Positions 1,003 to 63,069 of a stretch of DNA of 64,000 nucleotides are shown piece by piece. The translations under genes and the position numbers were made by a program. The first letter of the stretch is position 1. The number at the start of each line of letters is the position of its first letter. The notes beneath the pieces were generated by a model. The model was not told where the DNA came from and did not search any database. It was given only the letters and a program-made list of their open reading frames with translations. Source of the DNA: an uncultured virus (IMG/VR IMGVR_UViG_3300020042_003594) (Duplodnaviria > Heunggongvirae > Uroviricota > Caudoviricetes); the IMG/VR virus record IMGVR_UViG_3300020042_003594; one strand, 5' to 3'.

Positions 1003-1437
1003 TTATATTCCTTTTGAATTTTCGAGATATTGAATTGCTCGTTTTAATAATTCTACATCATCTTTTAAATGACCAATACCTGAATTACAATTACCACACA
1101 ATAAACCTCTGATATTACCTGTAGTATGGCAATGGTCTACTGCAAATGCTCTTGCGCCAGACTCATCCGTTCCACATATACCACAACAATTATCTTGAGC
1201 AGCAAGCATATGTAAGTATTCTTGATACCCAATACCAAAAGTCTTTTTTAATTTATAATGCTTATTTTTTTCATAACTATATTTACTTTTTACAGTATCA
1301 ATATTTTCTGAATACCACTCTTGATTATATTTATTACGACATTCTTTACAATGAGGGCGATAACCATCTTTATTAGTTATGCCTTTGTGAAATTCAGAAA
1401 AATCTTTTTTTGTTTCACATGTTCTACATGTTTTCAT
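1003..1437 (-). CDS. Endonuclease VII-like HNH (homing) endonuclease
   Basis: CRTC..CKEC zinc motif, CGIC, and VDHCHTTGNIRGLLCGNCNSGIG EndoVII signature. Start taken at MKTCRTC. AT-rich relative to neighbours. Confidence 0.88.
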   Translation of the reverse strand: MKTCRTCETKKDFSEFHKGITNKDGYRPHCKECRNKYNQEWYSENIDTVKSKYSYEKNKHYKLKKTFGIGYQEYLHMLAAQDNCCGICGTDESGARAFAVDHCHTTGNIRGLLCGNCNSGIGHLKDDVELLKRAIQYLENSKGI

Positions 1438-1444: not shown

Positions 1445-3601
1445 CTATCCAAGGGCAATTGCCATACTGACAGCAGTACCTGCAGAATCTACCTGTAAGT
1501 TTGTTTGGGCAGCAGACACTGTTGATGCACCTGTACCACCATTAGCAATAGCTACAATACCAGATACATTAGTTGCAGTAGCAGCATTACCAGTAGTGTT
1601 TTGATTCCATGTGGGAACAGTACCTGTCAGACCACTATAGTCTACGTTTGTAGCTGTTGCTGCATTACCAGTAGTATTTTGATTCCATGTAGGAACAGCG
1701 CCTGTCAGACCACTATAAGCTACGTTAGTTGCAGTAGCAGCATTGCCTGTGGTATTCTGGTTTAATGTAGGTACATCAGCCACTTGAATAGTGTTCATCA
1801 CTACGTTTGTACCATTACCGCGCAGATATGATCCACTAGTTACTGCACCAGCAAATGTGTTTATAGCCGACTGAGCATTATTTTGACCAGAGCCACCATT
1901 AGCTAAAGGAAGAATTCCATTTACACCAGCAGTCAGTGATACAGTATTCTTTTCCCAAAGACTAGTTGCACTGTTATATACAATCGTCTGACCAGTGGCT
2001 GGAGATTGAGCCGACACATTATGCAACTCGTCCAATTCATAGCCGTTTTGCACCTTCACCAGCAGCTTACCCTGAGTCGGGTGGGCGTGCGCCACAACCG
2101 CCATGTAGACCAAATGCTGCGGCGCGTATGGCTTGGTGGCCGTCAAAGTTCCCGCTGTCGTTGGGCTGAGATAAAGCTGCGCCCCGTCGGTGTACGCTGA
2201 TGTATTAATGTTGGTGACCAAGCCAATAATGGTTACAAAACCATTGGCATTGTTTGCCAGATCGCTGGTTATCAAACCCAATGTTTGGGCTGAAGTAGCA
2301 TCACCCGTTGCCAAAGCTTTGGATACGGTTGGAATTTGGCCTGTAGCACCAGAGATATATACTGCTGTACCTTTAGTTAATGTTGCGCCAGTAGTATTTC
2401 TTACTTGTTCAACTAACACAGACGCAGGAGAGGTTTGAGATACAGCTAAATCAATAGCCGTTCCTGTTGTAGTAACAACAATACTTCCATCTGCAGAAGC
2501 AACAGTCTGTAATGCTGTGTCTGCTTTACCGCCTTGTACAGAGGTAGCATAAGCTGTGCTATCTGTAGTAGCTGCAGTACCTAAACCTAAGTTAGTTCTT
2601 GCGGTAGGAGCGCTTAATAAATCAGATAAGTTATTAGCTGTTGTTAAAAATCCTGTACCCGAAACATAAGCAGCTACCCAAACAGTCCCTGTATACACTT
2701 TCATTATATCATCAACTGAGTTGAAGTATAAAGCGCCTGTTTGTAAAGGGTTACCATCATTATCTACTGTAGGATCAGATGTTTTCTCTCCCAAATATTT
2801 ATCATCAAAGTTATCAAAGGCAGCTAGTGCTTGATCACGAGCAGCTTCAGAAGCAGCCGCAGAAGATGCAGAAGCAGTAGCACTGTTAGCAGAATTAGTT
2901 GCCTGTGTAGTTGCAATACCTGCTTGGGTAGTAGCTATGCCAGCCTGTGTTGTGGCTGTAGCAGCACTTGTTGAAGCGTTAGTAGCTTGCGTAGTAGCAA
3001 TACCCGCTTGAGTAGTTGCTGTTGAGGCACTTGTCCCCGCAGACGTAGCTGATGAGGAAGCATTAGTTGCCTGTGTAGTTGCAATACCTGCTTGGGTAGT
3101 AGCTGTTGAGGCAGAGGTTGAAGCACTAGTCGCTGAGTTTGAAGCATTAGTTGCTTGTGTAGTAGCTATCCCTGCTTGAGTAGTAGCAGTAGAAGCAGAC
3201 GTAGCAGCATTAGTTGCCTGTGTAGTAGCTATGCCAGCCTGTGTAGTTGCTGTAGTGGCTTGTGCAGTAGCTATTCCTGCTTGAGTAGTTGCTATACCAG
3301 CTTGGGTAGTAGCAGTAGCAGCACTTGTTCCAGCAGAGGTAGCTGAAGTTGAAGCGTTAGTAGCTTGGGTAGTCGCAATACCAGCTTGTGTAGTGGCAAT
3401 ACCAGCTTGAGTTGTTGCTGTAGCAGCACTGCCTGAAGCACTAGATGCGCTTGCAGCAGCAGCAGCTGCACTTAATGCAGCCTCAGCAGCTTTTTGTGCT
3501 GCTAGTTGTTGGTAGGATATCGAGTCTACTGTATCTAAATTATCATACTCTCCACCAGAGGCAATATTGCCAGTCATTCCTGGTTTTTGTTCGTAACCCA
3601 T
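1445..3601 (-). CDS. Tail fibre / spike protein with Ala-Thr heptad repeats
   Basis: 718 aa with many ATTQAGI repeats, FDDKYLG..GALYFN motif and three [14 protein letters not shown] repeats. Follows the adaptor gene. Confidence 0.82.
1565..1770 (-). repeat. Three ~75-nt tandem coding repeats ([18 protein letters not shown])
   Basis: Repeat visible in both protein and DNA. Confidence 0.8.
2880..3430 (-). repeat. Degenerate 21-nt (7 aa) tandem repeats, ATTQAGI / ATTQATN
   Basis: Repeated heptads in the fibre protein, suggesting a coiled-coil shaft. Confidence 0.85.
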
Positions 3602-3610
3602 AATACCTCC

Positions 3611-4522
3611 TTAGATTAAACCGTTTGTATTAAAGTTAATTTGAACGTTACCACCAGAAGCTCTACGCCATTTTTCTTCTTTATTTAAAGAAAATATATT
3701 TTCAGTAAATTTATTTTGATAGCGTTGTTCCATTTTCTCATCAAAGAGATATGCACCCAAATTATATAAACCACCCCAAATAAGGAGACGTTCATTTTGA
3801 TCTCTTAGCCAGTTTGATACTTCAGTACCCACATACATTTTAGTTGTTACGGGGGTAGCATAGGCTGTTGCTTCTGTAGAAGTTGCAAAACATTTAGTAA
3901 CTCCAGCTAATGTACTAAAATAAAGATTAGTACCTGCAGAAGCAACTAACTCTAAGTAAGGTTGTTCAGCATCTGACAGTCCTATTACATAGTTAATAGG
4001 TGTTACATTATAAATAGCGTTTAATGCTGGTAGCCTTTTATAGTAGTGTATCTCTACAATAGCGCCTACAGCTAACTGTGGGTGAATAAAGATTTTATTA
4101 TCTTGCCACATCCAGTTATATACAGAATATTTTTCGCTGTATAAGTCAAAGAAAGTACGGCTATCAGTAACCTCATTAAATACTTTACTTACGTTACTTG
4201 GGAAAGTAGAGTAAGATGTGCCTAAGTTTTCTTGAGCAATAGTTCGGATATACACGAACTGAGTTAAATCTTCAGGGATATAAAAAGAAGTATAAGCGTT
4301 ACCGTAAGGTAAACCCAAACTATTTTCACCCTCATTGTCTTCAGATGTAACTACGTATCTTGTTGTTTCTTCTAGTGGGGGGATACGTAGTAATCGATAA
4401 CTTTCATCAGCAGAATATTTTAAACAATCCTGAATGACGCTATCTGGAATCGTATTTACTTCTGGTTTATTTGACCAGTCTCTTACTTTAGCGACTAAGC
4501 CGTCATACAGTGGTGTTGCCAT
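3611..4522 (-). CDS. Head-tail adaptor (tail tubular protein A-like)
   Basis: 303 aa. N-terminal Y..L...V.DW..., LRIP and C-terminal LLIWGGL...AYL pattern typical of podovirus adaptors. Position downstream of the capsid gene. Confidence 0.65.
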   Translation of the reverse strand: MATPLYDGLVAKVRDWSNKPEVNTIPDSVIQDCLKYSADESYRLLRIPPLEETTRYVVTSEDNEGENSLGLPYGNAYTSFYIPEDLTQFVYIRTIAQENLGTSYSTFPSNVSKVFNEVTDSRTFFDLYSEKYSVYNWMWQDNKIFIHPQLAVGAIVEIHYYKRLPALNAIYNVTPINYVIGLSDAEQPYLELVASAGTNLYFSTLAGVTKCFATSTEATAYATPVTTKMYVGTEVSNWLRDQNERLLIWGGLYNLGAYLFDEKMEQRYQNKFTENIFSLNKEEKWRRASGGNVQINFNTNGLI

Positions 4523-11172: not shown

Positions 11173-12816
11173 TTAAAGCCAAGTACTCTCTACTTGTTGG
11201 AATGACCCCTGCTTTTGTGCAAAGGTTACATTATTCGTTGTTAGTCTGTCACCGTGTGTTCTTATAACTTCAAGAGCAATCGCAAGCGCGATAACTGTGT
11301 CATCGTTGTGTCCCACAATAGCGTTAGTTTTTCCTGTATCATCTGCAACATAATTCATTAACTCCCCAATAATAATTCTGGAAGGGATCCAAACGTCATC
11401 CTGCTCGATAGCATTCTTTAAGAAACCAATAATAGCGGGTTTAGATGCTGAAGTAGTTCTCCAGCCAATCCTGTTACCTTCTTCCTTAGATACATTAGAC
11501 ATCTTTGTTTGATAGTACATGTTAACATACTTCATCTGAGTGAGTCTGTTTAATGTAGCTATACCCATAGAGTTTGACTCTACTGCTAACAAAGCATTGT
11601 TATAGTACCTGCCTAAGTAAAAGAGTAAGTCACCAAACTGGGAAGGATCAATAGTGTTATTTCTGTATACAGCGCATACTTGTCTTGAGGCATTCATAAT
11701 TACAGCAGAAGAATAGTCTTTACCTACTCCTAAAGCTACGTCAGCACCTATAACAAAAGAGTCTTCAAAGGTAGGATACTTAAATATCTCTATAGAGCCT
11801 CTCTGAACATCCTCCATCATGGAAGACTCAAAGTTAAACTCTCTTTTAGCTAATATAGGTTGTGGTATTAATTGACTCAGTTTTTCTAAGTTAAATACAT
11901 TAGAGCCAGAAATAATGAAGGCTTCTTCAGGGGTACAGGGATACTCCTGACGGAACTTATCTACACCACCCTCAGCAATCTTAAGTCTTCTCCAGTATAA
12001 CTGTTCATCATCTAAACTAAATCTGGTTACTAAGATTTCTTCTTCTGGAGATCTTTCAAAGATTGTACCTAAAGATACCTTTCTCCGGTATTCTTTCATT
12101 AAGAACCATGGTACGAAAATAGGTAAGTATTCATTCTCACCATTAACAGCACCCATCCATAATCGGTGCATGGCATTCCCCACACCATTAGCAGTACTCT
12201 CTAAAATAACCTCAGTACCATCGGCCTGAGAGATACCCTGAAATAAACCTGCTAAGATCTTTTCATCATGAGTCCAAAATCCAACCTCGGATAAATGTGC
12301 AATAGTGGGAGTCGTTCCTCTACCAGCCTCTGGAGCACCAGCAGTATATAGTCTGTATCCTGAGTCATTATGTTCAAACATAATCTCTTTGGCATTTGAC
12401 TTCTTAAACTTAGGTCTGAAACTATCAGTCATGTTATCAATAATATTTCTGCTCATTGAAAACAAAGCATCCGATGTAGCAGCATCATGAGCCATAACAA
12501 CAGACTTGTTATAGGCATTATAGTATGACTTCCAGAATACTCTGGCTGTGGTATATGTTGAGAGACCCATCTGTCGGGCTTTCAAAATAATAACCCTTAC
12601 TTTACCTGTCTCTCTTAATTGTTTCTCAATAGCTTCATTAACAATAGTTTGAGCATCATTAAACTCAAAAGGCTTGAATCCTTGAGATGAATCTTTAGGA
12701 AGTATCTTAATCTGTTCTTTGGCAAACAACTCAAAGTTATTTTTATACTCTGAGTTCTTTTGCCTCTTTTGAAGCTCCCTGAGAGCGTCTACTTTTTGTT
12801 TGTTAGTTGTGGTCAT
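11173..12816 (-). CDS. terL: Terminase large subunit
   Basis: Walker A ILKARQMGLST, HLSE, ESTANG coupling motif, nuclease IGADVA..G.DYS and GHNDDTV. Confidence 0.95.
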   Translation of the reverse strand: MTTTNKQKVDALRELQKRQKNSEYKNNFELFAKEQIKILPKDSSQGFKPFEFNDAQTIVNEAIEKQLRETGKVRVIILKARQMGLSTYTTARVFWKSYYNAYNKSVVMAHDAATSDALFSMSRNIIDNMTDSFRPKFKKSNAKEIMFEHNDSGYRLYTAGAPEAGRGTTPTIAHLSEVGFWTHDEKILAGLFQGISQADGTEVILESTANGVGNAMHRLWMGAVNGENEYLPIFVPWFLMKEYRRKVSLGTIFERSPEEEILVTRFSLDDEQLYWRRLKIAEGGVDKFRQEYPCTPEEAFIISGSNVFNLEKLSQLIPQPILAKREFNFESSMMEDVQRGSIEIFKYPTFEDSFVIGADVALGVGKDYSSAVIMNASRQVCAVYRNNTIDPSQFGDLLFYLGRYYNNALLAVESNSMGIATLNRLTQMKYVNMYYQTKMSNVSKEEGNRIGWRTTSASKPAIIGFLKNAIEQDDVWIPSRIIIGELMNYVADDTGKTNAIVGHNDDTVIALAIALEVIRTHGDRLTTNNVTFAQKQGSFQQVESTWL

Positions 12817-12893
12817 TCGTTATGGGACAGTATGTTCCATCCTGTTGTGTCTTAGCACGATATTATTATTTTAATAACGCGTTGGTTTTTTGT

Positions 12894-12906
12894 CTATTAG
12901 GAACCG
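12894..12906 (-). promoter_or_regulatory. Putative phage RNAP promoter (CGGTTCCTAATAG) upstream of terL
   Basis: One of 7 intergenic copies, oriented with the downstream operon. Confidence 0.7.
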
Positions 12907-12916
12907 ACTAATTCTC

Positions 12917-13125
12917 GTGGTAAATAGTATAAGGGTATACTTTGGATTACTTTTATTTGTAGAATATATTGGGATAATTTTTGGGAAAAAGGTTTTTGGG
13001 AAATAGTTTTGAGGGTACCCCTAGTTGCTTTATAGGGAAAAGGTTTAGGGAATTTTTTTATAGAGAGTTTTGTTAGGGTGCGTGTGTCTTTGTGTGTAAA
13101 AGAATCAGGGTGTTTGTTTGGGTTC
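12917..13125. other. Non-coding divergence region with periodic GGG tracts; probable genome terminus or packaging region
   Basis: Strand switch point. C-poor, with repeated TTTGGGAAA/TAGGGAA units and a central GGGTACCC palindrome. Confidence 0.5.
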
Positions 13126-13224
13126 GCTTGCCTCTGTGCTGTGTTCCCCCCTCTTTCCCTCTGGTCGTTGCTGCGTGGCGCTGCTGCTTCGTCCTTTCTT
13201 TGTCTGCGCTGCTTGGAGTCTGTT

Positions 13225-13542
13225 ATGGTTTCTTCTTCTGTTGTTGTGTCGGTTGAGGTGTGCTCGTACTCTGCTGGCTTTGGTGAGACTGTTCGTTTGT
13301 TGTCTCGTTTGTCAGCGACTCCTGTTTCTGTGGGGGTGTGTCCTTACACTGCTGTTGCTTCCGTTAGTGCAGAGCTTTATCGTGCTGCTGTTCCTGTGTG
13401 GCCTGCTATTCGTTCTCTTGCGTGGAGCGATGGTAGTTCTTCGGGAGACGCTGCCGATGTGTTTGTTGCTCGTCTTGACATTAAAACCGGCAGTGCTCGT
13501 TACTTTGCGCTTGGTGCGTTGCTTGAGTCTGTTGGTATTTAA
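13225..13542 (+). CDS. First early gene, adenine-depleted hypothetical protein (105 aa)
   Basis: GGAG RBS at 13215 before ATG. About 10% A by manual count. Confidence 0.6.
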   Translation: MVSSSVVVSVEVCSYSAGFGETVRLLSRLSATPVSVGVCPYTAVASVSAELYRAAVPVWPAIRSLAWSDGSSSGDAADVFVARLDIKTGSARYFALGALLESVGI

Positions 13543-13614
13543 GATCTCTGCCTGAAGGCTTTGGCCTTTGGAGAGCGTTCTTGCTCTGTTACGACATAAC
13601 TCAAGGAGATTACT

Positions 13615-13839
13615 ATGTCTAAGGTCTTTCACATTATAGTAGCATTACTCACATATCAAACAGGTATGTGGCTGTTGAACATCCATGAAGCAGGTAACGG
13701 TGGTTACTTTCACTTTGCTGCTACTATCTTAGTTGGTATGATCTTCTGTGCTCAGATCCATGTCTTAATTGATGAAGCATCTGAGATTGTTAACCTTGAT
13801 AAAGACTCTGAGATTATTGACTTAAACAAGAAAGACTAA
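13615..13839 (+). CDS. Early membrane protein (2 hydrophobic segments)
   Basis: AAGGAG RBS and two hydrophobic stretches. Confidence 0.65.
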   Translation: MSKVFHIIVALLTYQTGMWLLNIHEAGNGGYFHFAATILVGMIFCAQIHVLIDEASEIVNLDKDSEIIDLNKKD

Positions 13840-13841
13840 TC

Positions 13842-13949
13842 ATGTATTACATTTACTTGCGTTCTACTGGTTCATTAATCCTTAAGACATCATTGAAGTC
13901 AGTGTTACCTGTCTATGATCCTAAAGTATTTGAAGTAGTTATTTACTGA
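13842..13949 (+). CDS. Small early protein (35 aa)
   Basis: Manual translation MYYIYLRSTGSLILKTS...VVIY. Fills the gap exactly. Confidence 0.45.
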   Translation: MYYIYLRSTGSLILKTSLKSVLPVYDPKVFEVVIY

Positions 13950-13968
13950 TCACACCCATTCTCTGGGT

Positions 13969-14000
13969 TACAGAGAGACCTCTTGGGGTAAGTACCAAGA
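13969..14000 (+). repeat. 32-nt direct repeat, copy 1 (double-hairpin element)
   Basis: TACAGAGAGACCTCTTGGGGTAAGTACCAAGA, identical at 14382-14413. Confidence 0.9.
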
Positions 14001-14031
14001 AAACATCAACGTTCTTAACTAAGGAAATATC

Positions 14032-14361
14032 ATGGCAAAAGTCTTCACACCATCGTTTAAAGTTGCTACACCAGTAGTCACTAAGTTCTCTACAAACAAT
14101 CCATTCGGGGAAGATCGTAAGAGTCTGCCTGTAACTATCATTGAGTTAACCTTCAATGAAAATACTCGTAGTATCCAAGCTACAGGCTCTGACATGCGTA
14201 TGCGTCAATGCCGTATTGATCGTATGACTGATCAGAAAATGGTAGTAGCATTGACTAAACAACTGCAAAATGCCTACGATGACGGTACTAAGGTATGCTT
14301 TGTTGCAGCTGGTGCTAACGATCCTAATGTGTGGTTCTACACTGTCCTTGATCAGGCATAA
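14032..14361 (+). CDS. Early hypothetical protein
   Basis: 109 aa with TAAGGA RBS. Confidence 0.75.
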   Translation: MAKVFTPSFKVATPVVTKFSTNNPFGEDRKSLPVTIIELTFNENTRSIQATGSDMRMRQCRIDRMTDQKMVVALTKQLQNAYDDGTKVCFVAAGANDPNVWFYTVLDQA

Positions 14362-14381
14362 TTAAAGACCTTTCTCAGGTA

Positions 14382-14413
14382 TACAGAGAGACCTCTTGGG
14401 GTAAGTACCAAGA
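14382..14413 (+). repeat. 32-nt direct repeat, copy 2 (double-hairpin element)
   Basis: Identical to 13969-14000 and intergenic. Confidence 0.9.
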
Positions 14414-14467
14414 TAATCATAGGAATAGCGTTAGCTATTGCTACCTCTATATTAACAAGGAAATACT

Positions 14468-14716
14468 ATGACTACCTACCTACTACTTAACCCAATGACG
14501 CCCGATATGTTCGGATTAACCGAATACAAAGATGTAGAAGATGCCTTAGATGAGTTTGCCTGTGGATATCTCTACAGTAAAGACATACTAGGTAACGACA
14601 TCATGTTTGCAACAGCAAAATCACTGAAAACCATGACAAATATGGTAACAACAGTAGAGATTCCCGGCATAGTTATCGAGTATACAGCAGTTTATGATCA
14701 ATTTGTGGAGGCATAA
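14468..14716 (+). CDS. Early hypothetical protein
   Basis: 82 aa with AAGGA RBS. Confidence 0.7.
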   Translation: MTTYLLLNPMTPDMFGLTEYKDVEDALDEFACGYLYSKDILGNDIMFATAKSLKTMTNMVTTVEIPGIVIEYTAVYDQFVEA

Positions 14717-14724
14717 GACATATT

Positions 14725-14979
14725 ATGACAAACGACAAAGCAAATGAAATAGCAACTATCATTAAAGAGCTAATCTACTGCATGATTATTGAAGAAAGTG
14801 AACGATATTCACTAACAGTAAGAATATCAGCAGCAAAAGACATAACTGATAGCTACAAAGATCTGGTTAAGGCCTTAGAAACTGTACAATGCAATAAACC
14901 TATTGCAGCCTTACTAGGAAAACATGCATTAAAGGGCATAACAACACAAAAGGATAGCCAAGGTATCAACTATATGTAA
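14725..14979 (+). CDS. Early hypothetical protein
   Basis: 84 aa with GGAGG upstream. Confidence 0.6.
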   Translation: MTNDKANEIATIIKELIYCMIIEESERYSLTVRISAAKDITDSYKDLVKALETVQCNKPIAALLGKHALKGITTQKDSQGINYM

Positions 14980-15132
14980 ATGGTGTCTCCTAGAGGTTCT
15001 CTTAATAACGTTTATTATAAGAGAATCTCTTCTGGTAAAGCTCTCTGAATGACATATATAGCGAGATGTCAGCGAATATATGTTGTTTGGAGGGTTTTTG
15101 TGTGTGTATTGAAAGTTAAACAAAGGAGTAAT

Positions 15133-15408
15133 ATGAAAGTAATCATTAACAGCTGTTACGGCGGCTACGGCATCTCAGAAACAGCCCTCCAAAGATACAA
15201 CGCCACAACTCTTAATCCAGTAACCCATGAGTATGACATATCTAGAACTGATCCTATCCTAATAAAAATAATCGAAGAGCTAGGCGATGAAGCAAATAGT
15301 CAATACTCCAAACTAAGAATCGTAGAAATCCCTGATAACACTGATTATACTATCGAAAACTACGATGGATTAGAGCATATCGCAGAAGTCCACAAAACAT
15401 GGTACTAA
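15133..15408 (+). CDS. Conserved phage protein (INxCYGGxG family)
   Basis: MKVIINSCYGGYGISE...R.DP.L..IIEELG...YDGLE, with AAAGGAG RBS. Confidence 0.8.
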   Translation: MKVIINSCYGGYGISETALQRYNATTLNPVTHEYDISRTDPILIKIIEELGDEANSQYSKLRIVEIPDNTDYTIENYDGLEHIAEVHKTWY

Positions 15409-15412
15409 TTAA

Positions 15413-15700
15413 ATGAAACATCATCACTACGACCTAATCATAGACTGGGCTAATGACCCAACCCAAACTGTGCAATTAAGAGATAAAAGGAGTAATACTG
15501 ATTGGACTGACGTATCACAACCGACATGGGTGCCTTACTTCGAATACCGTATTAAACCTAAAACAACCGTCCGATATGTAGGTATTCGATCAAACACTTC
15601 TCTTGTAGCTCAAAGCGATCTAAGAAACAGAAATGACAATCTACGACTCACCTACGATACCTTCACCGATGAACTAATCTCCGCAGAAATCATCAACTAG
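15413..15700 (+). CDS. Hypothetical protein (YRIKP family), paralogue of 16280..16582
   Basis: H.H..LI...P.W....YRIKP...NLRL...LI.AE.I. Confidence 0.75.
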   Translation: MKHHHYDLIIDWANDPTQTVQLRDKRSNTDWTDVSQPTWVPYFEYRIKPKTTVRYVGIRSNTSLVAQSDLRNRNDNLRLTYDTFTDELISAEIIN

Positions 15701-15712
15701 AAAGCCACACCT

Positions 15713-15931
15713 ATGATAGTATCCAAATACACTGCCTTATTCACACCAATCACACTAAATGTCACATTCGAATCAACCAAAGAATATGACCTGTTCTACT
15801 CCATGATGGTTATGAATGTAACTGTACCAAGTGTATGTATATTCAATGAGAATGATGAAGAAGAAACCTCAGACAGAAAAACTCTCTCAGACCTAATGGC
15901 TAAAGTATCTCAATCACTAAGGACTAAATAA
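15713..15931 (+). CDS. Hypothetical protein, paralogue of 15931..16131
   Basis: PITLNVTFES..E..LF..M. Confidence 0.65.
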   Translation: MIVSKYTALFTPITLNVTFESTKEYDLFYSMMVMNVTVPSVCIFNENDEEETSDRKTLSDLMAKVSQSLRTK

Positions 15932-16131
15932 TGAAACTATCCTATTCAAAACCAGTCTCACCTATCATTCTTACACTATCTTTTGAGACAGAAGAAGAAG
16001 CCTACCTGTTCGGTCAAATGGCTTCTTACTCATTGACTATACCATCAGTAATGGCTCTTGAACCTGTTGAGTCTATCAAACTAAGGAACATGCTTCAACA
16101 AATCTTTGAAGAGCTTACTGAAGTAGACTGA
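15931..16131 (+). CDS. Hypothetical protein, paralogue of 15713..15931
   Basis: PIILTLSFET..E..LF..M, with TAATG coupling to the upstream gene. Confidence 0.65.
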   Translation: MKLSYSKPVSPIILTLSFETEEEAYLFGQMASYSLTIPSVMALEPVESIKLRNMLQQIFEELTEVD

Positions 16132-16165: not shown

Positions 16166-16178
16166 CGGTACCTAATAG
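16166..16178 (+). promoter_or_regulatory. Putative phage RNAP promoter (CGGTACCTAATAG)
   Basis: Consensus copy, intergenic. Confidence 0.75.
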
Positions 16179-16215
16179 AAAATTCTCTCTCCGGTGGATG
16201 TTATATAGATAATAT

Positions 16216-16279: not shown

Positions 16280-16582
16280 ATGTTACATCCTCATCATGAA
16301 ATTATCATAGAGTATCTAGAAGGTAAAGTTATTGAGGTATATGTCTCCGATGAAGATAGATGGGAAGAGCTAGGTACAGTTAGTTCTTCTCTCTTTATGC
16401 CTTTATTCCACAGAGATATTCTTTATAGGGTTAAACCAAAGAGTGTCACTAAAGTAAGCGTATTAAAGATCAGTTATGGAGAAGAAGATAATGAACATTA
16501 CATATGGAGTACCTCTCAGATGCCTAATCTCAGGTTATACTGGTTAGATAATAAACTTATTAATGCTGAGGTTATTGTATGA
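16280..16582 (+). CDS. Hypothetical protein (YRVKP family)
   Basis: Paralogue of 15413..15700. Confidence 0.7.
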   Translation: MLHPHHEIIIEYLEGKVIEVYVSDEDRWEELGTVSSSLFMPLFHRDILYRVKPKSVTKVSVLKISYGEEDNEHYIWSTSQMPNLRLYWLDNKLINAEVIV

Positions 16583-18624: not shown

Positions 18625-18678
18625 ATAAACTCCAAAAAACCAACGTGTTATTAAGACAATAATAACCAAGTGTTTTAT

Positions 18679-18691
18679 CTATTAGGTACCA
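18679..18691 (-). promoter_or_regulatory. Putative phage RNAP promoter (TGGTACCTAATAG) for the inverted gene
   Basis: Motif copy oriented toward 18223..18624. Confidence 0.72.
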
Positions 18692-25024: not shown

Positions 25025-25037
25025 CGGTGCCTAATAG
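25025..25037 (+). promoter_or_regulatory. Putative phage RNAP promoter (CGGTGCCTAATAG) upstream of replication genes
   Basis: TAGCCGGTGCCTAATAGAAA matches the 16162 copy at 19 of 20 nt. Confidence 0.75.
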
Positions 25038-25057
25038 AAACTACAGAAAGGCATACT

Positions 25058-33113: not shown

Positions 33114-33126
33114 CGGTACCTAATAG
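33114..33126 (+). promoter_or_regulatory. Putative phage RNAP promoter (CGGTACCTAATAG) upstream of RNR
   Basis: Consensus copy, intergenic. Confidence 0.75.
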
Positions 33127-33130
33127 ACCC

Positions 33131-35264: not shown

Positions 35265-35277
35265 TGGAGCCTAATAG
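35265..35277 (+). promoter_or_regulatory. Putative phage RNAP promoter variant (TGGAGCCTAATAG) directly upstream of the tRNA
   Basis: TAGCTGGAGCCTAATAG ends 4 nt before the tRNA 5' end. Confidence 0.65.
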
Positions 35278-35281
35278 TAAA

Positions 35282-36744: not shown

Positions 36745-39700
36745 TTAATCTGGAAAAGATTTTTCAAAATTAGATACAAAGTTTTCTGCTCGTTTAATAT
36801 CAGACTTTTCATTAATAGCTTTTGTTTTACTTATGTTACCTCTGTTACCAGTAGCTCCATAAGTCATTTGACCAATGCCATCCTTCTTAGAGGCAGTCAT
36901 TAGCTTAGAGGCAGTATCATTAACCTTGTTAGCAAAATTATTTACCCAAGAGTCAAACCTATTTGAAGGGCCAGACAGCTTAAGCATCTCTTTAGCAATC
37001 ATAGTTAATCTCTTAAACTCACTAGGTGCTACTGCTAAATGTTGCCTGATGTATTCCCCACCCATATTAGGTGTATTAGGAATAGAACCAGGTGCTTTCC
37101 AACCAGCTGCTTCAGCTTCTTTAAGCATTGCATTAATACGTTGTTGATACTTAACCCACTTAACAGGGTTATTATGTGCTCTACTTAAAAACAATTCTTT
37201 ATAAGAACCATTATCTTGTACGCGCTCATACTGCTCATCAAGGTAAGCGCCTAAAGCAGGGTAGTCTCCTTTATCACCAATGCCAACAGGTCTACGGATA
37301 TCCATAACTCTATTGAATTCTTTTTCTTCAGCTTCTTTAATTACTTGGTCAAACTTTTTACCAAACTTAGCAATTTGAGGAATAGCTCCTGGTATAGAGA
37401 TATTGTTATAAGCATTACGATAAATTAAAGAACCACCCGGAGTTGAAATAGATGAGTCATGAACCCACATAACAGGTACTGGAGTAGTTTTATCTTTATT
37501 AACAAATAGAGTAGTACCTTTAACTAAATCACCATCAAGCGACTGAATAGGCATAACAACCATTTGCCTAGATTGACTAGTACCAATAGCATTATTATAG
37601 ATATCATACTTCTTAGTACGCTGATTGTAAATTAGTTGTGAGCCTTTACTAGCTGCTGGATTATAATCCATTGCAGAAGATTCAACTGTAACTTCTTCAC
37701 CCGCGCTATTAATAAAAGTATCTGACTCATAAGCTTTATACTTAACCATAACAGTAGAGCCATCAGGCAGCTTAACAGGTAGCAATTCACCAGTATCATT
37801 TGCTTTATTAACAGGCATAACTTCTACGGGAGTCAGTACATAAGTGTCTCCTGATACACCTTCCATCATAACTGTTGTGTTAAGAATAGAAGTATACCTT
37901 CCAATGTCTTTTAATACTTGAGTTGATTGAGAGTTAATAACTTCTCTTAGAGTACCTTCAAGGGCATCGCTCAATGCAGTAGCAGCTTTATCAAGGTCTC
38001 TTGAGTATGCAGTACTATTTAATAAGTATTGTTGAGTTTCATCAGGATAAACACTGGCTAAAATTTCAACCATCATATCACCAAACATGCTGGCATCTTT
38101 ACCATAAGCATTCTGCATAAGAGGCTTCTTAAAGAAGTCTTTAGACATTTGTGCTTTACCTTGCTTATCTTTAATAGACTTAAAGAAGTTTCTCCATGCA
38201 TCATTTGCATCAGGATTATCTTTAAGATTGTCTTCCAAATTAGCAATCATAGTATTCATAGCGTACTCACGCATGTCATCTAAGTTTGGATTAAACATAC
38301 CTAAACGAATAGCGTTATCAGGGCTACCAAAGAATAAAGCTTGAAGGAAAATACCATTCTGATTACCGTCATCAAAGGCATGATGAGTTAACGCCACATG
38401 TTTTCTTGTTTGTGCAGGATCTAATGATGCTGCTTTAAGATTAAACATATCGTCCCATAGATTCTTAGAACCCATAGACTCACCTTTCTCCATACCAGCT
38501 AGCAGCTCTTGAATATTATCAGGTGCATTAACAGGGTCTGATAAGAACATATTATATTCTTTACCAACTTCAGCTAATTTATTACCAATATCTGGTGTGT
38601 ACATAGCTACAATATTAGCAGGTGACTGGCTAGTAATATCTGGGTTAGTACCGTTAACAGCTGAGTAATAGTTAATAACTGCATTAAGCATAGTGCCAAT
38701 GGCTGCTCTCTCAGAAGGAGATAATTTACTTAATGTATCATGTTGTTGTTCCCCAGACATGCGAAGAATCTTAACCGCTTTTTGCTTAATACTTTCAACC
38801 ATCTTAGGATCAAACAACATATCAGAGGTTACATAATCTTTATTAGCAAACCCGATCATGTCACGAGTACCATTCTTTGAACCCATGTAGTCAACATCAA
38901 AACTATTAGGGAAGAAACGTTGATTAGCTAAACTGTGTACCCACTCTGAGTATCGAATACCGGGAGAGCCTTTAGTATTTGCAACATCAAACTGAAGAGT
39001 CTTAAGTTTATTATTAATAACTTCCACAGCTTGGTATTCTTGTTGGGCTTCAAACTCACGAACATCTTCTGGATTAGAAGCATCAAAATCTTTTTTAGGA
39101 TTTGTTTTAAGTTTAGCTTCAATGTAGTCTTTCTCACTAACTCCATTACGTTTAGCAGCCCAATGATTACTGAATTGGATTTTACCTTCTCTGTTTTTCT
39201 GAAGATACTGAGGATCCATAATCAAACTAAGTTCAATCTCTTTATACTGAACATCTTTAGCCCCAAACATAAAACCAACAGAACCAAGAATATCTTTAGT
39301 TGCTTCAGCAGAAGTAGTAACAAGATCACCCTTCTTAATAGAACGCTTAGTTAGTTGTTGACGATTAGCTGCAAAAGAAGAACCGCTACGACTAGGGGTA
39401 GATGAAGAACGTCTACGGCCATAGTCACCTACTAAAGCTTCAGAAGCTATTTGTAAGTCTTTAGCAATGTTCTTTAAGTCAGGACTCATTTGAACTACGG
39501 GACGATCATTAATATGAAATACTTTAATTGATCCCCTATCAATAGCATCCATTACAGTAGCTTTAGACATCTCATTAATAGCTTTAGGTGAAACCTTTTT
39601 ACCCATGCGGTTTAATCCGTTAGTGGCAAAGTGTTTAACAGAGTTAATATAGTCTAGTAAATAGGTAGCATCATCAATAGTAGCACCAGACCCAACTACA

Positions 39701-40542
39701 ACTTTACCTGTACCTTCTTTTTCACCTTTCTCAACTTTACCTTGAGAAGCGGACTTAGCTAATGCTACACCAAACACTAAACCTAAGTCAGCTAGTTCTT
39801 CAGGAGCAGTAAAACCATCTTCATAAGCTGCTTTTAAACCAGCAGCAATTAAAACAGAGCTACCATCAGCACCTTTCATTTCACTTTTAATTCTTGCATT
39901 AGAAGTAAAGAGTGCATCATTTGTTTGGGAAACAATACTTGCTAATGCAGTAGAAGTCTTATCAGCATAACGATCAATAGCATCTTCATCCATTGATTTG
40001 TTAGCAACCTCTCTTGAGGACGCATTAAACATAGCATCTTGTCTACCAGACAATAATGCTTGGGTAGCAGGAGCAGCAGCCATGAACGGGTCTTGAGCCA
40101 TTCCCTGCATAGACTCCATTGTATTTAATTGAGAAGCTTTTTCCATAGTCTGCTGTGTAGCATAATCTTCTGGAGTAATTTGTCTCATCATTGGTAAACC
40201 AGTTTGAGGGTTAACTCGTGGAGCACCTGTCTCATCTAAGATAGGTTCTTCTACAGGTCTAGCCCCAAATCTAGATCCAGAAGCTAGTGCTACATCTTCA
40301 GCTGTCCTAATAGTAGGTGCTGTAGCAAGCATTTCTTCTGATGGGCCTGTTGGTACAGGTATATCAGTAGGTTGAGGCATATACTGGTCTACAGTAGCCT
40401 GAACTGTTTTACGTGGATCTTCTACAGGTGCAGGTACTTGACCCATCATGCCTGTAGCTTGTGATTCGAGAGCCATAAGTTGATCTAATGAAAGACCAGC
40501 TTTTGGCGCCCCTAAAGGTGCGACTTTAGTTTGAATTGCCAT
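36745..40542 (-). CDS. Divergent single-subunit RNA polymerase, probable virion-encapsidated (ejected) RNAP
   Basis: Motif A FDDGNQNG, motif B KDFFKKPLMQNAYG, IQSLDG and motif C WVHDS, in T7/N4 order. No Cys in 1265 aa. Last gene of the ejection cluster. Confidence 0.8.
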   Translation of the reverse strand: MAIQTKVAPLGAPKAGLSLDQLMALESQATGMMGQVPAPVEDPRKTVQATVDQYMPQPTDIPVPTGPSEEMLATAPTIRTAEDVALASGSRFGARPVEEPILDETGAPRVNPQTGLPMMRQITPEDYATQQTMEKASQLNTMESMQGMAQDPFMAAAPATQALLSGRQDAMFNASSREVANKSMDEDAIDRYADKTSTALASIVSQTNDALFTSNARIKSEMKGADGSSVLIAAGLKAAYEDGFTAPEELADLGLVFGVALAKSASQGKVEKGEKEGTGKVVVGSGATIDDATYLLDYINSVKHFATNGLNRMGKKVSPKAINEMSKATVMDAIDRGSIKVFHINDRPVVQMSPDLKNIAKDLQIASEALVGDYGRRRSSSTPSRSGSSFAANRQQLTKRSIKKGDLVTTSAEATKDILGSVGFMFGAKDVQYKEIELSLIMDPQYLQKNREGKIQFSNHWAAKRNGVSEKDYIEAKLKTNPKKDFDASNPEDVREFEAQQEYQAVEVINNKLKTLQFDVANTKGSPGIRYSEWVHSLANQRFFPNSFDVDYMGSKNGTRDMIGFANKDYVTSDMLFDPKMVESIKQKAVKILRMSGEQQHDTLSKLSPSERAAIGTMLNAVINYYSAVNGTNPDITSQSPANIVAMYTPDIGNKLAEVGKEYNMFLSDPVNAPDNIQELLAGMEKGESMGSKNLWDDMFNLKAASLDPAQTRKHVALTHHAFDDGNQNGIFLQALFFGSPDNAIRLGMFNPNLDDMREYAMNTMIANLEDNLKDNPDANDAWRNFFKSIKDKQGKAQMSKDFFKKPLMQNAYGKDASMFGDMMVEILASVYPDETQQYLLNSTAYSRDLDKAATALSDALEGTLREVINSQSTQVLKDIGRYTSILNTTVMMEGVSGDTYVLTPVEVMPVNKANDTGELLPVKLPDGSTVMVKYKAYESDTFINSAGEEVTVESSAMDYNPAASKGSQLIYNQRTKKYDIYNNAIGTSQSRQMVVMPIQSLDGDLVKGTTLFVNKDKTTPVPVMWVHDSSISTPGGSLIYRNAYNNISIPGAIPQIAKFGKKFDQVIKEAEEKEFNRVMDIRRPVGIGDKGDYPALGAYLDEQYERVQDNGSYKELFLSRAHNNPVKWVKYQQRINAMLKEAEAAGWKAPGSIPNTPNMGGEYIRQHLAVAPSEFKRLTMIAKEMLKLSGPSNRFDSWVNNFANKVNDTASKLMTASKKDGIGQMTYGATGNRGNISKTKAINEKSDIKRAENFVSNFEKSFPD

Positions 40543-54721: not shown

Positions 54722-54729
54722 TTGTTATC

Positions 54730-54742
54730 CTATTAGGTACCG
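54730..54742 (-). promoter_or_regulatory. Putative phage RNAP promoter (CGGTACCTAATAG) heading the phoH-tail-ejection operon
   Basis: Consensus copy in a 22-nt intergenic gap. Confidence 0.75.
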
Positions 54743-55621: not shown

Positions 55622-56121
55622 CCTTTCTGAAAACTACAATTACCGGCACACTGTTCAAGTATCTCAATTGAGAAATAACCAATAGCACCTACCATAATAA
55701 AAAATACAAGCCCTAGTAGAATGAGTTCAATGAGTTCATCTATTTCTTTTTTACGTTTTGCAGCAGCCTCTCTCTCACGCCGTGCGTCATGTGCTGCTTC
55801 TTTATCAATACTTGCTGCACGAGCTACAATCTTAGCCCACACATCCATTTTATTACTTTGGAAGAACAGCATTTTTACTTCTTCTTCAAAAGCTCTGGCT
55901 TGTTCAATTGCAAGTTCTAGTTCAATAGCTTTTCCCATAGAACTACCACTAAACTTGCCTTGCTTAGACTGGCTAACCACTTTAATGGCATCAGCTTTAG
56001 CTGAAAAAAACTTACCTAAGACAGGGCCAAGACTTTCTACGTCCTGTACGGTCTTAGCTGCTGTCTTAACTAACTTAACTGCTGTTTGTATAGCAGCTAA
56101 CGCTGTGAATGGATCAATCAT
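55618..56121 (-). CDS. Hypothetical protein with C-terminal TM helix
   Basis: MIDPFTA.A N-terminus, coiled coil and TM segment. Confidence 0.7.
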   Translation of the reverse strand: MIDPFTALAAIQTAVKLVKTAAKTVQDVESLGPVLGKFFSAKADAIKVVSQSKQGKFSGSSMGKAIELELAIEQARAFEEEVKMLFFQSNKMDVWAKIVARAASIDKEAAHDARREREAAAKRKKEIDELIELILLGLVFFIMVGAIGYFSIEILEQCAGNCSFQKG

Positions 56122-56482: not shown

Positions 56483-56498
56483 TGGGTTCCTTTATATA

Positions 56499-57743: not shown

Positions 57744-57745
57744 GT

Positions 57746-60299: not shown

Positions 60300-60309
60300 G
60301 GGTTTCCTT

Positions 60310-61215: not shown

Positions 61216-61224
61216 TGGGTTACC

Positions 61225-63057: not shown

Positions 63058-63069
63058 AATTGTTTCCTT

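Follow-up and report, generated by a model that had tools for sequence, protein, structure and literature searches.

A conserved family of double-hairpin elements, most likely structured mRNA leaders, in the early region of a freshwater podophage related to CRP-7

Introduction

The stretch of DNA analysed here (the window, 64 kb) comes from a freshwater podophage belonging to the relatives of roseophage CRP-7, a lineage that is abundant, almost unstudied and represented here by many freshwater contigs. Its early region carries the same short sequence in two gene gaps, and each copy can be drawn as two adjoining hairpins. We asked whether these hairpins act in the DNA, as promoters for a phage RNA polymerase, or in the RNA transcribed from it. 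The comparison with relatives indicates that they represent a conserved, previously undescribed family of structured leaders, which most likely act in mRNA rather than as DNA-hairpin promoters.

Results

Anatomy of the repeat

Searches of the window at up to 3 mismatches indicated that an exact 32-mer occurs at 13969-14000 and 14382-14413 and nowhere else in the 64 kb, while shuffled sequences gave matches in 0/100 shuffles. The 32-mer lies within an extended repeat of 48 nt and 90% identity (13956-14003 and 14369-14416), copy 2 being offset from copy 1 by 413 nt. Both copies are intergenic, as a previous reading of the window made from the sequence only had stated, and one stands on each side of the ORF at 14032-14361. 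That each copy is two-stemmed, with GGTTA and GTATA as first loops, was likewise found, together with an inner A/A mismatch in copy 2 that the sequence-only reading had left unmentioned. The looser arrangement that it had placed at 13546-13606 is present and is better described as another double hairpin, the third, with a sequence unlike that of the two copies. The features of this region are as follows, types A and B being the two families described below and IG0, IG1 and IG2 the intergenic slots.

13552..13587, + strand: third double hairpin, type-A-like, slot IG0, 5' of the gene for a 74-aa membrane protein
13552-13559 with 13564-13571, then directly 13572-13577 with 13582-13587, + strand: pairing of the third double hairpin
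13842..13949, + strand: 35-aa ORF (MYYIY...), its stop codon 9 nt 5' of stem 1 of copy 1
13959..14000, + strand: type B double hairpin, copy 1, slot IG1, 5' of the 109-aa gene
13959-13965 with 13971-13977, + strand: copy 1 stem 1, loop GGTTA
13978-13980, + strand: copy 1 spacer, ACC
13981-13986 with 13995-14000, + strand: copy 1 stem 2, 8-nt loop GGTAAGTA
14001..14031, + strand: linker from copy 1 to the start codon, 31 nt, unstructured, C/A-rich, with Shine-Dalgarno AAGGAA
14032..14361, + strand: 109-aa early gene between the two copies, highly conserved
14372..14413, + strand: type B double hairpin, copy 2, slot IG2, 5' of the 82-aa gene
14372-14378 with 14384-14390, + strand: copy 2 stem 1, loop GTATA, inner A/A mismatch
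14391-14393, + strand: copy 2 spacer, ACC
14394-14399 with 14408-14413, + strand: copy 2 stem 2
14468..14716, + strand: 82-aa early gene 3' of copy 2, with 12 related loci

The window thus holds three double hairpins, all between 13552 and 14413. The third has a base CCUG..UUGG with tandem U·G/G·U and a second hairpin, GAGAGCG-uucu-UGCUCU, directly 3' of the first; it folds at -18.1 kcal/mol (z -2.9). Related hairpin pairs occupy slot IG0 in relatives L008, L011 and L013, and a canonical type A element occupies it in L002. The folding energies of the two type B copies are unremarkable when taken alone (copy 1, z -1.9, with 10/200 shuffles as stable; copy 2, z -1.0, 33/200), and the case for their structure rests on the comparison with relatives. 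Covariance model R2 scored 64.4 bits on copy 1 and 72.2 bits on copy 2.

Two families of double hairpins among relatives

The comparison set comprised 62 loci from relatives. Judged from these alignments, the repeat is a member of one of at least two interchangeable double-hairpin families that occupy the same intergenic slots. Type B, to which both copies in the window belong, follows the pattern CUCUUCNC..GNGAGACC and then a stem with loop GGUANGUA, whereas type A reads CCUGUAG-stem-loop-stem-CUAUGGG and then a variable hairpin. Stems measure 5-7 bp in type B and 13 bp in type A; loops are 5 and 8 nt long in the window and 4-10 nt in relatives.

The 23 distinct type B sequences are paired at 86.6% of 291 cells and carry changes on both sides (compensatory changes) in 8/13 pairs. 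None of 500 shuffles reached the observed values on four measures, and 129/500 did so for further pair types. GAGACC and the loop GGUANGUA are invariant in 23/23 sequences, and a run of 28 nt is identical between the window and relative L001. Hairpin 1 of type A (19 sequences, 17 distinct, 13 pairs) is paired at 221/221 cells as compared with 35-57% in slid controls, its base with the tandem U·G/G·U is invariant, and both-side changes affect 5/13 pairs and 30 cells. Its shuffles gave 0/500 for the percentage of cells paired, the cells changed on both sides and the covariation score, 105/500 for the pairs changed on both sides and 62/500 for further pair types. Hairpin 2 of type A, of at least 4 bp, follows directly 3' of hairpin 1 in 39/39 unique sequences and comprises 24 distinct hairpins with a mean z of -3.5. 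Covariation across relatives had been proposed as a check on the element, and it was found in both families, the element being conserved. As read from the alignments, the compensatory changes and the invariant wobble pairs show selection on the pairing itself.

Exchange between the families is seen among near relatives: L016, with 89% identity in the 109-aa protein, carries a type-A-like element at IG1 and type B at IG2, and in most relatives different families stand on either side of the gene. The marine phage CRP-7 has a related apex motif, CCTGTAATGGG, twice in its early region, at 335 and 1136, and nowhere else on that strand; its proteins share about 32% identity with those of the window and its host is presumably different.

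Placement, spacing and neighbouring genes

Script patterns detected an element at slot IG1 in 38/43 non-duplicate loci, and reading by eye found variant double hairpins in 4 of the remaining 5; slot IG2 holds an element in 23/43. Complete relatives carry 1-2 copies each, all at the same intergenic slots, and in general the elements number 1-3 per genome and are confined to the first 1.5 kb of the early region. Copy number and position in the window and in complete relatives thus bear out the claim that the two-stem signal is restricted to the early region, and in the window the double hairpin is absent from the middle and late regions.

The distance from type B hairpin 2 to the start codon is 26-33 nt in 21/23 loci, and that from the end of type A hairpin 1 is 38-48 nt in 13/15. 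The ribosome-binding site lies outside the structure and is not sequestered. No conserved promoter-like block was found 5' of hairpin 1 in relatives, this stretch being the variable end of the preceding gene. The gene 3' of the element may be the 109-aa gene, an unrelated 94-97-aa gene, the 82-aa gene or inserted genes, and by gene content the element is bound to no single downstream gene. The 109-aa protein shows 57-91% identity in alignments among relatives and has no Pfam or PHROG family; its AF2 model (pLDDT 75) matched OB-fold chains at a TM of about 0.55-0.6, which predicts an OB-like fold. The 35-aa ORF is kept in relatives as a 36-aa ORF.

The gene 3' of IG1 is sometimes swapped for an unrelated one in relatives, extra genes are inserted beside elements (e.g. 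an HNH-like ORF in L011), and the intergenic regions are mosaics of hairpin modules.

Repeats at gene borders may also serve as recombination or cassette boundaries that mark swap points of small early genes and have little expression role of their own, T4-type phages having cassettes of promoter and stem-loop. The two copies in the window are indeed direct repeats around one gene, and the replacement of the gene after IG1, the insertions and the mosaic structure are compatible with such boundaries. However, the compensatory changes and invariant wobbles imply selection on pairing, the spacing to the start codon is constrained, and the two different families around the gene in most relatives leave no homology for exchange, so this explanation is very improbable.

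In RNA run X1, 6% of the sampled words were present and four contigs were obtained. A 192-nt RNA-library contig of a relative begins about 5 nt 5' of hairpin 1 and includes it; this is weak evidence, since RNA ends are not visible in contigs and the library may contain DNA.

Searches of databases and discarded readings

No match was found by blastn of window positions 13000-16000 or by tblastn of the 109-aa protein against GenBank phages. Rfam 15 at E up to 1 yielded tRNA only (window 12800-37000 and relatives L003, L024 and L034). A host-repeat (CRISPR-like) mimic was discarded, the 25-nt type B consensus having 0 matches in 185,579 species genomes. The invariant ATG in type A CTATGGG was treated as part of the helix rather than as the start of a small ORF because the mini-ORFs vary in length, frame and peptide between loci. 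A pseudoknot in type B would pair the invariant ACC with the loop GGU, and steric constraints forbid this at a linker of 0 nt, the majority case. The tRNA-like or RNase P substrate reading ('stem + ACC(A/U)') was a lead only, with a stem of 5-7 bp and no ARAGORN prediction there, and a competing GAGA/UCUU hairpin bridging the two stems is weak and lacks conservation. The comparisons gave no support for CRP-7 gp03, or the product of the alternative 94-aa gene, being a homologue of the 109-aa protein.

These results bear on the idea that both families are new small self-cleaving motifs which cleave the polycistronic early RNA at its cistron borders. In its favour, unlike structured motifs replace one another at a single slot, conserved loop and junction nucleotides stand next to covarying stems, conservation is independent of the host and, as a weak indication, the contig end falls near the base of hairpin 1. 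Against it, no Rfam ribozyme matched at E up to 1, no plausible tertiary pairing was found (the type B ACC/GGU pairing being excluded by steric reasoning at a zero-length linker), and the conserved type A positions lie within a regular helix. We regard self-cleavage as highly unlikely.

Polymerases and promoters of the phage

The phage carries two T7-type single-subunit RNA polymerases, the 1265-aa one being recognised by its predicted fold. The features relevant to transcription are given below.

12942..13024, + strand: presumed early operon start region, with AT-rich sigma-70-like hexamers and an invariant palindrome
12942-12947 (TTGGAT), 17 nt, 12965-12970 (TATATT); 12973-12978 (GATAAT), + strand: hexamers
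13013-13024, + strand: invariant palindrome GGGTACCCCTAG
16167..16179, + strand: first + strand copy of the putative promoter GGTACCTAATAGA, marking the end of the hairpin-holding early region
36745..40542, - strand: gene for the predicted 1265-aa second single-subunit RNA polymerase, in the structural module among giant proteins

The 1265-aa protein had no match by sequence in Pfam, PHROGs or PDB sequences (phmmer, profile) and no similarity to the 735-aa polymerase by BLASTP or hhalign. Its AF2 model (pLDDT 91.4) gave a Foldseek E of 5.5e-11, and structural alignment with VIA-align gave Z 24.8 to T7 RNAP and Z 18.4 to N4 mini-vRNAP (574 residues aligned), which agrees, at the level of the predicted fold, with the proposal that it is an RNA polymerase. 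Its homologue in CRP-7 is gp33. If packaged in the virion, the 1265-aa enzyme would be a candidate reader of signals in the early region.

The motif GGTACCTAATAGA, found at up to 1 mismatch at 12893(-), 16167, 18678(-), 25026, 33115 and 54729(-), is by its sequence and distribution a probable phage-polymerase promoter distinct from the double hairpin. A fuller form, wTTAGyCGGTACCTAATAGA, stands 5' of middle and late genes on both strands. The consensus GGTACCTAATAGA is not contained in the double hairpin, and no 14-mer of the element recurs elsewhere in matching context at up to 2 mismatches. The early region is distinguished by an A-poor leader and hairpin-punctuated cistrons.

A sigma-70 promoter scan of 12816-13600 returned no + strand site at the thresholds used. 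Our own hexamer scan detected -10-like hexamers in 13/13 loci holding the start region, and a host promoter there is plausible and not established because the best -35/-10 pair differs in position between loci.

Strand preference of the hairpins

Two pairs of type A are invariant wobbles (U·G or G·U; columns 7-34 in 17/17 and columns 16-25 in 15/17), as is one pair of type B (columns 15-36 in 23/23), and type A has A/C in 0 of 221 cells. Every non-Watson-Crick pair is a G·T on the sense strand and would be A/C on the template strand; type A as a whole gave 134 wobble pairs on the sense strand versus 13 on the opposite strand. The sense strand was also the more stable in 39/39 type A sequences (mean -22.9 vs -14.5 kcal/mol) and in 14/20 type B sequences. 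Hairpin 2 of type B is nearly all Watson-Crick and strand-neutral, folding equally on the template strand. A sense-strand RNA leader is favoured over a template-strand hairpin promoter of the N4 type because of the G·U strand bias and the fixed spacing to the start codon, and we estimate the probability that the element is a sense-strand RNA element at about 0.7.

The promoter was the option that the sequence-only reading had found most attractive: the repeats would extrude as hairpins in the injected DNA and the 1265-aa enzyme would initiate just downstream, as in N4. It remains a live minority reading because the 1265-aa protein folds as a second RNA polymerase, predicted to be of the T7/N4 type, and its gene lies among those for giant structural-module proteins. 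The 1-3 elements per genome, restricted to the early region, recall the three promoters of N4, the stems combine conserved with freely covarying positions as in N4, and the type B hairpin 2 stem of 5-7 bp folds equally on both strands. A transcription start just past hairpin 2 would agree with the fixed distance of 26-33 nt to the start codon, and the type A 5' arm GTACCTGTAG resembles the phage promoter GGTACCTAATAG. However, all non-Watson-Crick pairs take the form G·T on the non-template strand, so that on the template strand 3 of the 13 type A pairs would become A/C mismatches and several stems of hairpin 2 would be interrupted; such imperfect repeats should extrude poorly as cruciforms. 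Loops are of 5-10 nt instead of 3 and the GC-rich heptamer is absent, the genes 5' of the elements would require another promoter, hairpin 1 lies inside the RNA-library contig (a weak point), and packaging of the 1265-aa enzyme in the virion is presumed. On this evidence the strand of the wobbles, the better folding of the sense strand and the misfit of stems and loops speak against the N4-style promoter, which we consider quite unlikely. Among the three options that the sequence-only reading had offered, an RNA signal in the early transcript, either processing or polymerase-directed, fits best.

Discussion

A leader in the early mRNA

The likeliest role of the sense-strand leader is processing or stabilisation. 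The two directly adjoining stem-loops would form a cis-acting structured RNA, the 5' leader of the next early cistron, within one polycistronic early transcript that would start near 12950-13030. Here the hairpins would punctuate the early mRNA as nuclease barriers or as a processing site, so that the upstream message would end in a 3' hairpin and the downstream message would start hairpin-capped. Next would come a C/A-rich stretch of about 30 nt, free of structure and containing the ribosome-binding site, and the mRNA of the conserved early genes would be stabilised and their expression boosted. In this scheme we infer the single transcript, the generation of ends at the hairpins and the identity of the nuclease or protein reader.

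We put this mechanism forward tentatively, at somewhat below even odds. The stems of 5-13 bp are short in comparison with a classical RNase III site, which counts against processing, and the mechanism is further weakened by a second RNA polymerase with no promoter assigned to it, by the weakly supported host-type promoter upstream and by type B hairpin 2 being able to form on the template strand. The very strong conservation seen in the alignments goes beyond the needs of a passive nuclease barrier, which speaks for a specific reader. The presence of CCTGTAATGGG in CRP-7 despite about 32% identity and a presumably different host suggests that such a reader is phage-encoded rather than a host nuclease.

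The nascent double hairpin may bind the transcribing polymerase, be it the host's or the 1265-aa one, or else a conserved protein of the phage, and would then alter elongation or termination in the manner of put and nut sites, or be a translational operator or enhancer. The same sense-strand structure data agree with this account as with the processing leader. The invariant GAGACC, the loop GGUANGUA and the U·G/G·U base of type A resemble a recognition surface, the motif shared with CRP-7 suggests a phage-encoded partner, the two-stem architecture of about 50-65 nt is like that of HK022 put, and the adjacent 109-aa protein has a predicted OB-like fold, which often binds nucleic acid. However, one modifier site would be enough, and a single operon has 2-3 tandem copies, each ahead of a different gene; the elements are not followed by a terminator-like hairpin with a T run; two unrelated families per slot would call for either a pair of readers or one that recognises shape alone; and the structure leaves the ribosome-binding site free. 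Autoregulation by the 109-aa protein is opposed by the element also preceding genes unrelated to it. We judge binding of this kind unlikely.

A combination of these ideas, in which CRP-7-type podophages would run an N4-like programme with the 1265-aa polymerase delivered together with the DNA and the double hairpins as its own sense-strand signals, is rather unlikely. If true, it would represent a new class of hairpin signal (non-template DNA or nascent RNA) setting the start, pause or end of early transcription, and a second, independently evolved route to host-independent early transcription.

For the leaders in general, at least two covariation-supported RNA motifs absent from curated libraries are added. 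The analysis also exposes the transcription plan of the lineage, with a second, very diverged polymerase encoded in the structural module, a clear consensus for the promoters of its middle and late genes and a hairpin-punctuated early region. Since CRP-7, the only cultured relative, can be grown, the lineage is open to asking if hairpin signals also serve small phage polymerases beyond the N4 family, and on which strand.

Comparison with known systems

Like T7-type double-stranded promoters, the element has a type A 5' arm resembling the core of the phage's own motif; unlike them, it has covarying base pairs, for which a double-stranded promoter has no need.

As described in the review PMC4496689, N4 has three vRNAP promoters in the leftmost 10% of its genome, each with a template-strand hairpin of a 5-7-bp stem, a 3-nt loop and a GC-rich heptamer centred at -11, and the inverted repeats contain conserved bases and freely covarying ones. 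The window is alike in that its few copies are confined to the early, leading part of the genome (13552-14413 only) and in its highly diverged T7-like polymerase in the late/structural module with a second T7-like polymerase among the replication genes. It differs in its pair of hairpins, whose stems measure 5-13 bp and whose loops measure 4-10 nt, in lacking the heptamer, and in its complete pairing on the sense strand only, type B hairpin 2 being strand-neutral. Its 1265-aa polymerase stands alone, whereas the N4 enzyme is the middle of a 3500-aa protein.

HK022 put is named in PMC4496689 as an antitermination RNA. Like put, the elements are about 60 nt long, consist of two stem-loops side by side in the nascent sense RNA of an early operon, and occur more than once per genome. 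They differ in their 2-3 tandem copies in one operon, each just 5' of a cistron, and in their two interchangeable sequence families, the two systems being compared by architecture only. HK022 put is a two-stem RNA that occurs once per operon just past the promoter and acts on the host polymerase, while here the copies lie 0.6-1.4 kb from the presumed operon start. No terminator-like site follows the elements within the early region, the nearest + strand one in the stretch scanned (16362-16391) being past the first phage promoter.

The early RNase III sites of T7 each consist of one irregular hairpin, about two helical turns long and interrupted by an internal loop. The elements resemble them as intercistronic structured RNA of an early transcript, presumably polycistronic here, in several related copies that stand on both sides of the first well-conserved early gene. 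They differ as two separate short abutting hairpins, and would reach a helix of about 17-21 bp, as compared with the RNase III sites, only if the abutting hairpins stack.

Stabilising 5' stem-loops, for example those in the leaders of T7 late genes and of ompA, stand at a primary 5' end with the promoter directly upstream. Unlike these, the elements are preceded by no promoter-like conserved block, and a processing step would be needed for the role of a 5' leader because of this. Like them, they consist of hairpins followed by about 25-35 nt of open RNA with a ribosome-binding site at a fixed distance from the start codon.

A conserved double hairpin in the early region

Analysis of the window confirmed the identical intergenic 32-mers of the sequence-only reading, at 13969-14000 and 14382-14413; these were the only two matches at ≤3 mismatches in the window, and 0/100 shuffles gave a match. 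The two copies flank ORF 14032-14361, and the repeat widens to 48 nt at 90% identity. Computed folding reproduced the two stems proposed for each copy: the first has 6-7 bp and closes a 5-nt loop, the second has 6 bp and closes the 8-nt loop GGTAAGTA, and ACC separates them. The folding of these copies, hereafter type B, is not exceptional alone (z -1.9 and -1.0; sense strands -16.7 and -13.0 kcal/mol, antisense -14.4 and -9.7 kcal/mol). The looser arrangement noted after the first gene does exist, at 13552-13587, and forms a third double hairpin, unlike the other two in sequence (-18.1 kcal/mol, z -2.9).

A pattern scan found an identical 28-mer in one viral contig (locus L001), and searches anchored on the neighbouring 82-aa and 109-aa proteins gave 12, 21 and 27 loci; 43 loci were left once duplicates were removed. 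The conserved order is A-poor first ORF, small membrane protein, 36-aa ORF, intergenic slot IG1, 109-aa gene, slot IG2, 82-aa gene; slot IG0 precedes the membrane-protein gene, and in some loci an unrelated 94-97-aa gene takes the position after IG1. Absence from relatives had been named as evidence against the proposed functions, and script patterns detected type B at IG1 in 23/43 loci and a second family, type A, in 15/43, that is, one or the other in 38/43. Four of the five loci lacking a pattern match (L016, L040, L041 and L045) carry variant double hairpins by eye, and reading of the sequence showed L044 to be the only locus of the 43 with no double hairpin at IG1. At IG2, type A was found in 20 and type B in 3 of the 43 loci. 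The two families are combined as follows.

Window: type B at IG1 and IG2
L002: type A at IG0, type B at IG1
L016: type B at IG2 only
L024, L027, L028, L031: type B at IG1, type A at IG2

Since the families swap between close relatives at the same slots, the 'duplication' in the window is one lineage's choice among interchangeable modules. Covariance models matched only the two known type B copies in the window, where the type A model gave no match. In seven relatives with complete or nearly complete genomes they found 1-2 copies per genome, each of them at IG1 or IG2.

The intergenic regions of relatives are mosaics of hairpin modules, and the extra modules CAGGGTCGCAGAyyCTG and CAGAGnGAACATCGTTCCTCTG recur beside some double hairpins (L003 IG2, L025 IG2, L029 IG1; L004 and L012 IG1). 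In L011 the 109-aa gene is separated from the IG2 element by an inserted 151-aa ORF (3251-3706), HNH homing endonuclease-like by eye. The terminase coding sequence contains a stretch similar to the type A base (TAGAGT..ACTCTATGGGTA), at 11526-11590 (-) in the window and 1133-1197 (-) in L002; its covariance-model score is poor (16 bits in L002), and coding constraint has most likely preserved a chance resemblance.

Covariation and strand of the structure

Covariation across related phages, the check proposed in the sequence-only reading, was found in both families, with compensatory changes at 5 pairs of type A (30 cells) and 8/13 pairs of type B. Type A hairpin 1, the first stem-loop, is a 13-bp helix (aCCTGTAG-NNNN-TT / AG-NNNN-CTATGGG) with 221/221 cells paired among 17 distinct sequences, and slid controls gave 35-57% pairing. 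None of 500 shuffles matched its pairing, its cells changed on both sides or its covariation score; 105/500 and 62/500 equalled the pair-count and pair-type measures. The second hairpin begins ≤1 base from the first in 39/39 unique sequences (mean z -3.5 for 24 distinct hairpins).

Among 23 distinct type B sequences, 86.6% of 291 cells are paired; 0/500 shuffles matched the observed values on four measures and 129/500 did so for further pair types. Stem 2 occurs as TCTTGG/CCAAGA, CAGG/CCTG, ACACGA/TCGTGT and AGCACAG/CTGTGCT, and is broken by a T/C mismatch in L002. In 21/23 the inner pair 20-31 of stem 1 does not form, so that the real first stem has ~5 bp plus a closing pair. The columns GAGAC and GGTA.GTA are invariant, and the full hexamer GAGACC, which the collecting pattern required, is present in 23/23. 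The structure of both families is under selection.

All departures from Watson-Crick pairing are G·T on the + strand (type A columns 7-34 in 17/17, 8-33 in 11/17 and 16-25 in 15/17; type B column 15-36 in 23/23), and intermediate states of covarying pairs are G·U, never A/C. Type A carries 134 wobble pairs on the + strand versus 13 on the opposite strand. As RNA, the + strand folds more stably in 39/39 type A sequences (-22.9 vs -14.5 kcal/mol, Wilcoxon p 5e-8) and 14/20 type B sequences (-12.95 vs -11.70, p 0.019), type B hairpin 2 alone being strand-neutral. Together, the wobble pairs and the stabler folds indicate that the structure belongs to the sense strand, as RNA; non-template DNA is less plausible.

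Position relative to downstream genes

The distance to the start codon is 26-33 nt from the end of the type B element in 21/23 loci and 38-48 nt from the end of type A hairpin 1 in 13/15; this gap is C/A-rich, predicted to be open and contains the ribosome-binding site. No conserved promoter-like block was found 5' of hairpin 1, where the stretch is the variable end of the preceding gene. Because different, unrelated genes follow the element in different loci, it is a leader module of general use rather than the operator of one gene. The 109-aa protein (14032-14361) is the best-conserved early gene product (57-91% identity, 30 sequences), with a predicted beta-beta-beta-alpha-beta-beta OB-like fold (pLDDT 75); its nearest solved folds are OB-type B subunits (TM 0.55-0.6, E ~3e-4, a generic fold resemblance only), and nucleic-acid binding is possible on this model.

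Genome layout and candidate promoters

The + strand from ~12,900 to 36,500 opens with the small early genes and continues with genes for a family A DNA polymerase, primase-helicase, a 735-aa T7-like RNA polymerase (PF00940, E 3.9e-58), ribonucleotide reductase and tRNA-Arg. Terminase, portal and tail genes lie on the - strand, together with genes for three giant proteins (1037, 1398 and 1265 aa). The closest cultured phage is Roseobacter phage CRP-7 (L014), whose polymerase is 32% identical over 99% of its length and which shares the gene order. The passages on CRP-7 in its description (PMC6918029) are silent on regulatory elements, and the literature searched yielded no regulatory signals for this phage group. 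CRP-7 has a run of five iteron-like AACCTTG repeats at 1440-1530.

The tail-fibre region (1-700 and 56000-64000) has a much higher G+C, 46-56% vs ~36% elsewhere, which together with its diverged duplications suggests several paralogous or exchanged fibre modules.

56972-57137 with 58749-58914: diverged duplication, 80%
57630-57689 with 59404-59463: diverged duplication, 82%
259-321 with 62913-62975: diverged duplication, 84%
2887-3481, -: repeat with a 21-nt period (a 217-nt unit in 11 overlapping copies), within the tail-fibre-like gene 1445-3601 (718 aa)

A separate motif, wTTAGyCGGTACCTAATAGA, occurs at six places with ≤1 mismatch in its 13-nt core, and once in weaker form.

12893-12905, -: core
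16167-16179, +: core
18678-18690, -: core
25026-25038, +: core
33115-33127, +: core
54729-54741, -: core
35266-35278: weaker copy before the tRNA

All copies are intergenic and aimed at the next gene, on both strands. The signal lies in near-exact copies (<0.1 expected by chance, by our arithmetic); at ≤3 mismatches, 24 observed equal the 21.7 expected. Four complete relatives hold 8-11 copies at ≤2 mismatches versus 1-3 for a reversed control, and the motif is essentially absent from CRP-7 (one match, not above the reversed control). Most simply, the motif is a promoter used by one of the phage's polymerases, which is probable. The first + strand copy, at 16167, bounds a ~3.2-kb early region containing all hairpins.

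At the head of this region AT-rich sigma-70-like hexamers are weak; a promoter-prediction scan found no sigma-70 site there, and our own scan found -10-like hexamers in 13/13 loci at shifting places. The palindrome GGGTACCC(C)TAG (13013-13024), at the head of the A-poor leader and invariant in all 7 aligned loci, resembles the phage promoter core (GGTACC..TAG) and the type A stem base, and could be an early promoter of one phage polymerase. Leader and first ORF (13050-13540, +) contain only 9% A, and in relatives the stretch has 1-8% A over 400-900 nt, with ~40% T and ~30% G; stop and ATG codons are therefore nearly absent, and few A/T-containing palindromes are possible. An RNA library contains a 156-nt contig identical to 13237-13381 of this leader.

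A second single-subunit RNA polymerase

36745-40542, -: 1265-aa second, very diverged, single-subunit RNA polymerase (AF2, Foldseek, VIA-align)

The 1265-aa protein had no match in Pfam, PHROG or PDB sequences, and none of its 65 homologues has a Pfam match; its sole cultured-phage match is CRP-7 gp33, a weak one (E 4e-4). Language-model neighbours pointed to RNA_pol, and DYMGSK, AFDDGNQNGIFLQ, FFKKPLMQNAYGK and VHDSS follow in the order expected for the family, their key residues invariant or nearly so (27-61 homologues). An AlphaFold model of residues 400-1265 from 61 homologues (pLDDT 91.4, pTM 0.88) retrieved mitochondrial and T7 polymerases with Foldseek at E 5.5e-11 and below (73 hits at E ≤1e-3), and VIA-align gave Z 24.8 to T7 RNAP (500 residues) and Z 18.4 to N4 mini-vRNAP (574 residues). 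By this modelled fold and its matches, the phage has two single-subunit RNA polymerases, one in the structural module.

Nature of the element

The element is real, conserved and previously undescribed, and most probably serves as a leader or as punctuation in RNA. A cis-acting RNA leader fits best because of the sense-strand pairing, the fixed leader length, the missing upstream promoter block and the family swap. Phage early operons and 5' stabiliser hairpins offer an analogy, by which processing or stabilisation of the early message would be the favoured role; an RNA-library contig of a relative starts ~5 nt before hairpin 1, which is compatible with this role and proves little.

Three observations speak against a purely passive role and for recognition by a specific reader, perhaps a polymerase of the phage itself: GAGACC, the loop GGUANGUA and the type A tandem-wobble base are invariant; CCTGTAATGGG recurs at the apex of early-region hairpins in marine CRP-7; and a type A arm resembles the promoter core. 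In CRP-7 the hairpins at 325-352 and 1131-1150 have this same apex, and CCTGTAATGGG has no other + strand copy in the 58-kb genome. For these reasons two further readings are kept: an RNA directed at a polymerase or protein, which is unlikely, and a promoter, which is somewhat less likely still. As cultured relative, CRP-7 makes functional tests of the element feasible.

In the N4 model (PMC4496689) the hairpin forms on the template strand around a GC-rich heptamer, with 5-7 bp in the stem and 3 nt in the loop. The elements were tested for these features and lack them; the N4-style DNA-hairpin promoter favoured by the sequence-only reading was thus not borne out, and the element is not an N4-type promoter as defined. 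The N4 model does agree with the number and location of the copies and with the existence of a second polymerase. The 1265-aa protein comes after the 1037- and 1398-aa giants in the structural operon, and its packaging in the virion is inferred from gene position only. A pair of polymerases with one encoded in the structural module is an N4-like layout, and the three giants, totalling ~3700 aa and close to the 3500 of N4 gp50, look like a split N4-type virion polymerase.
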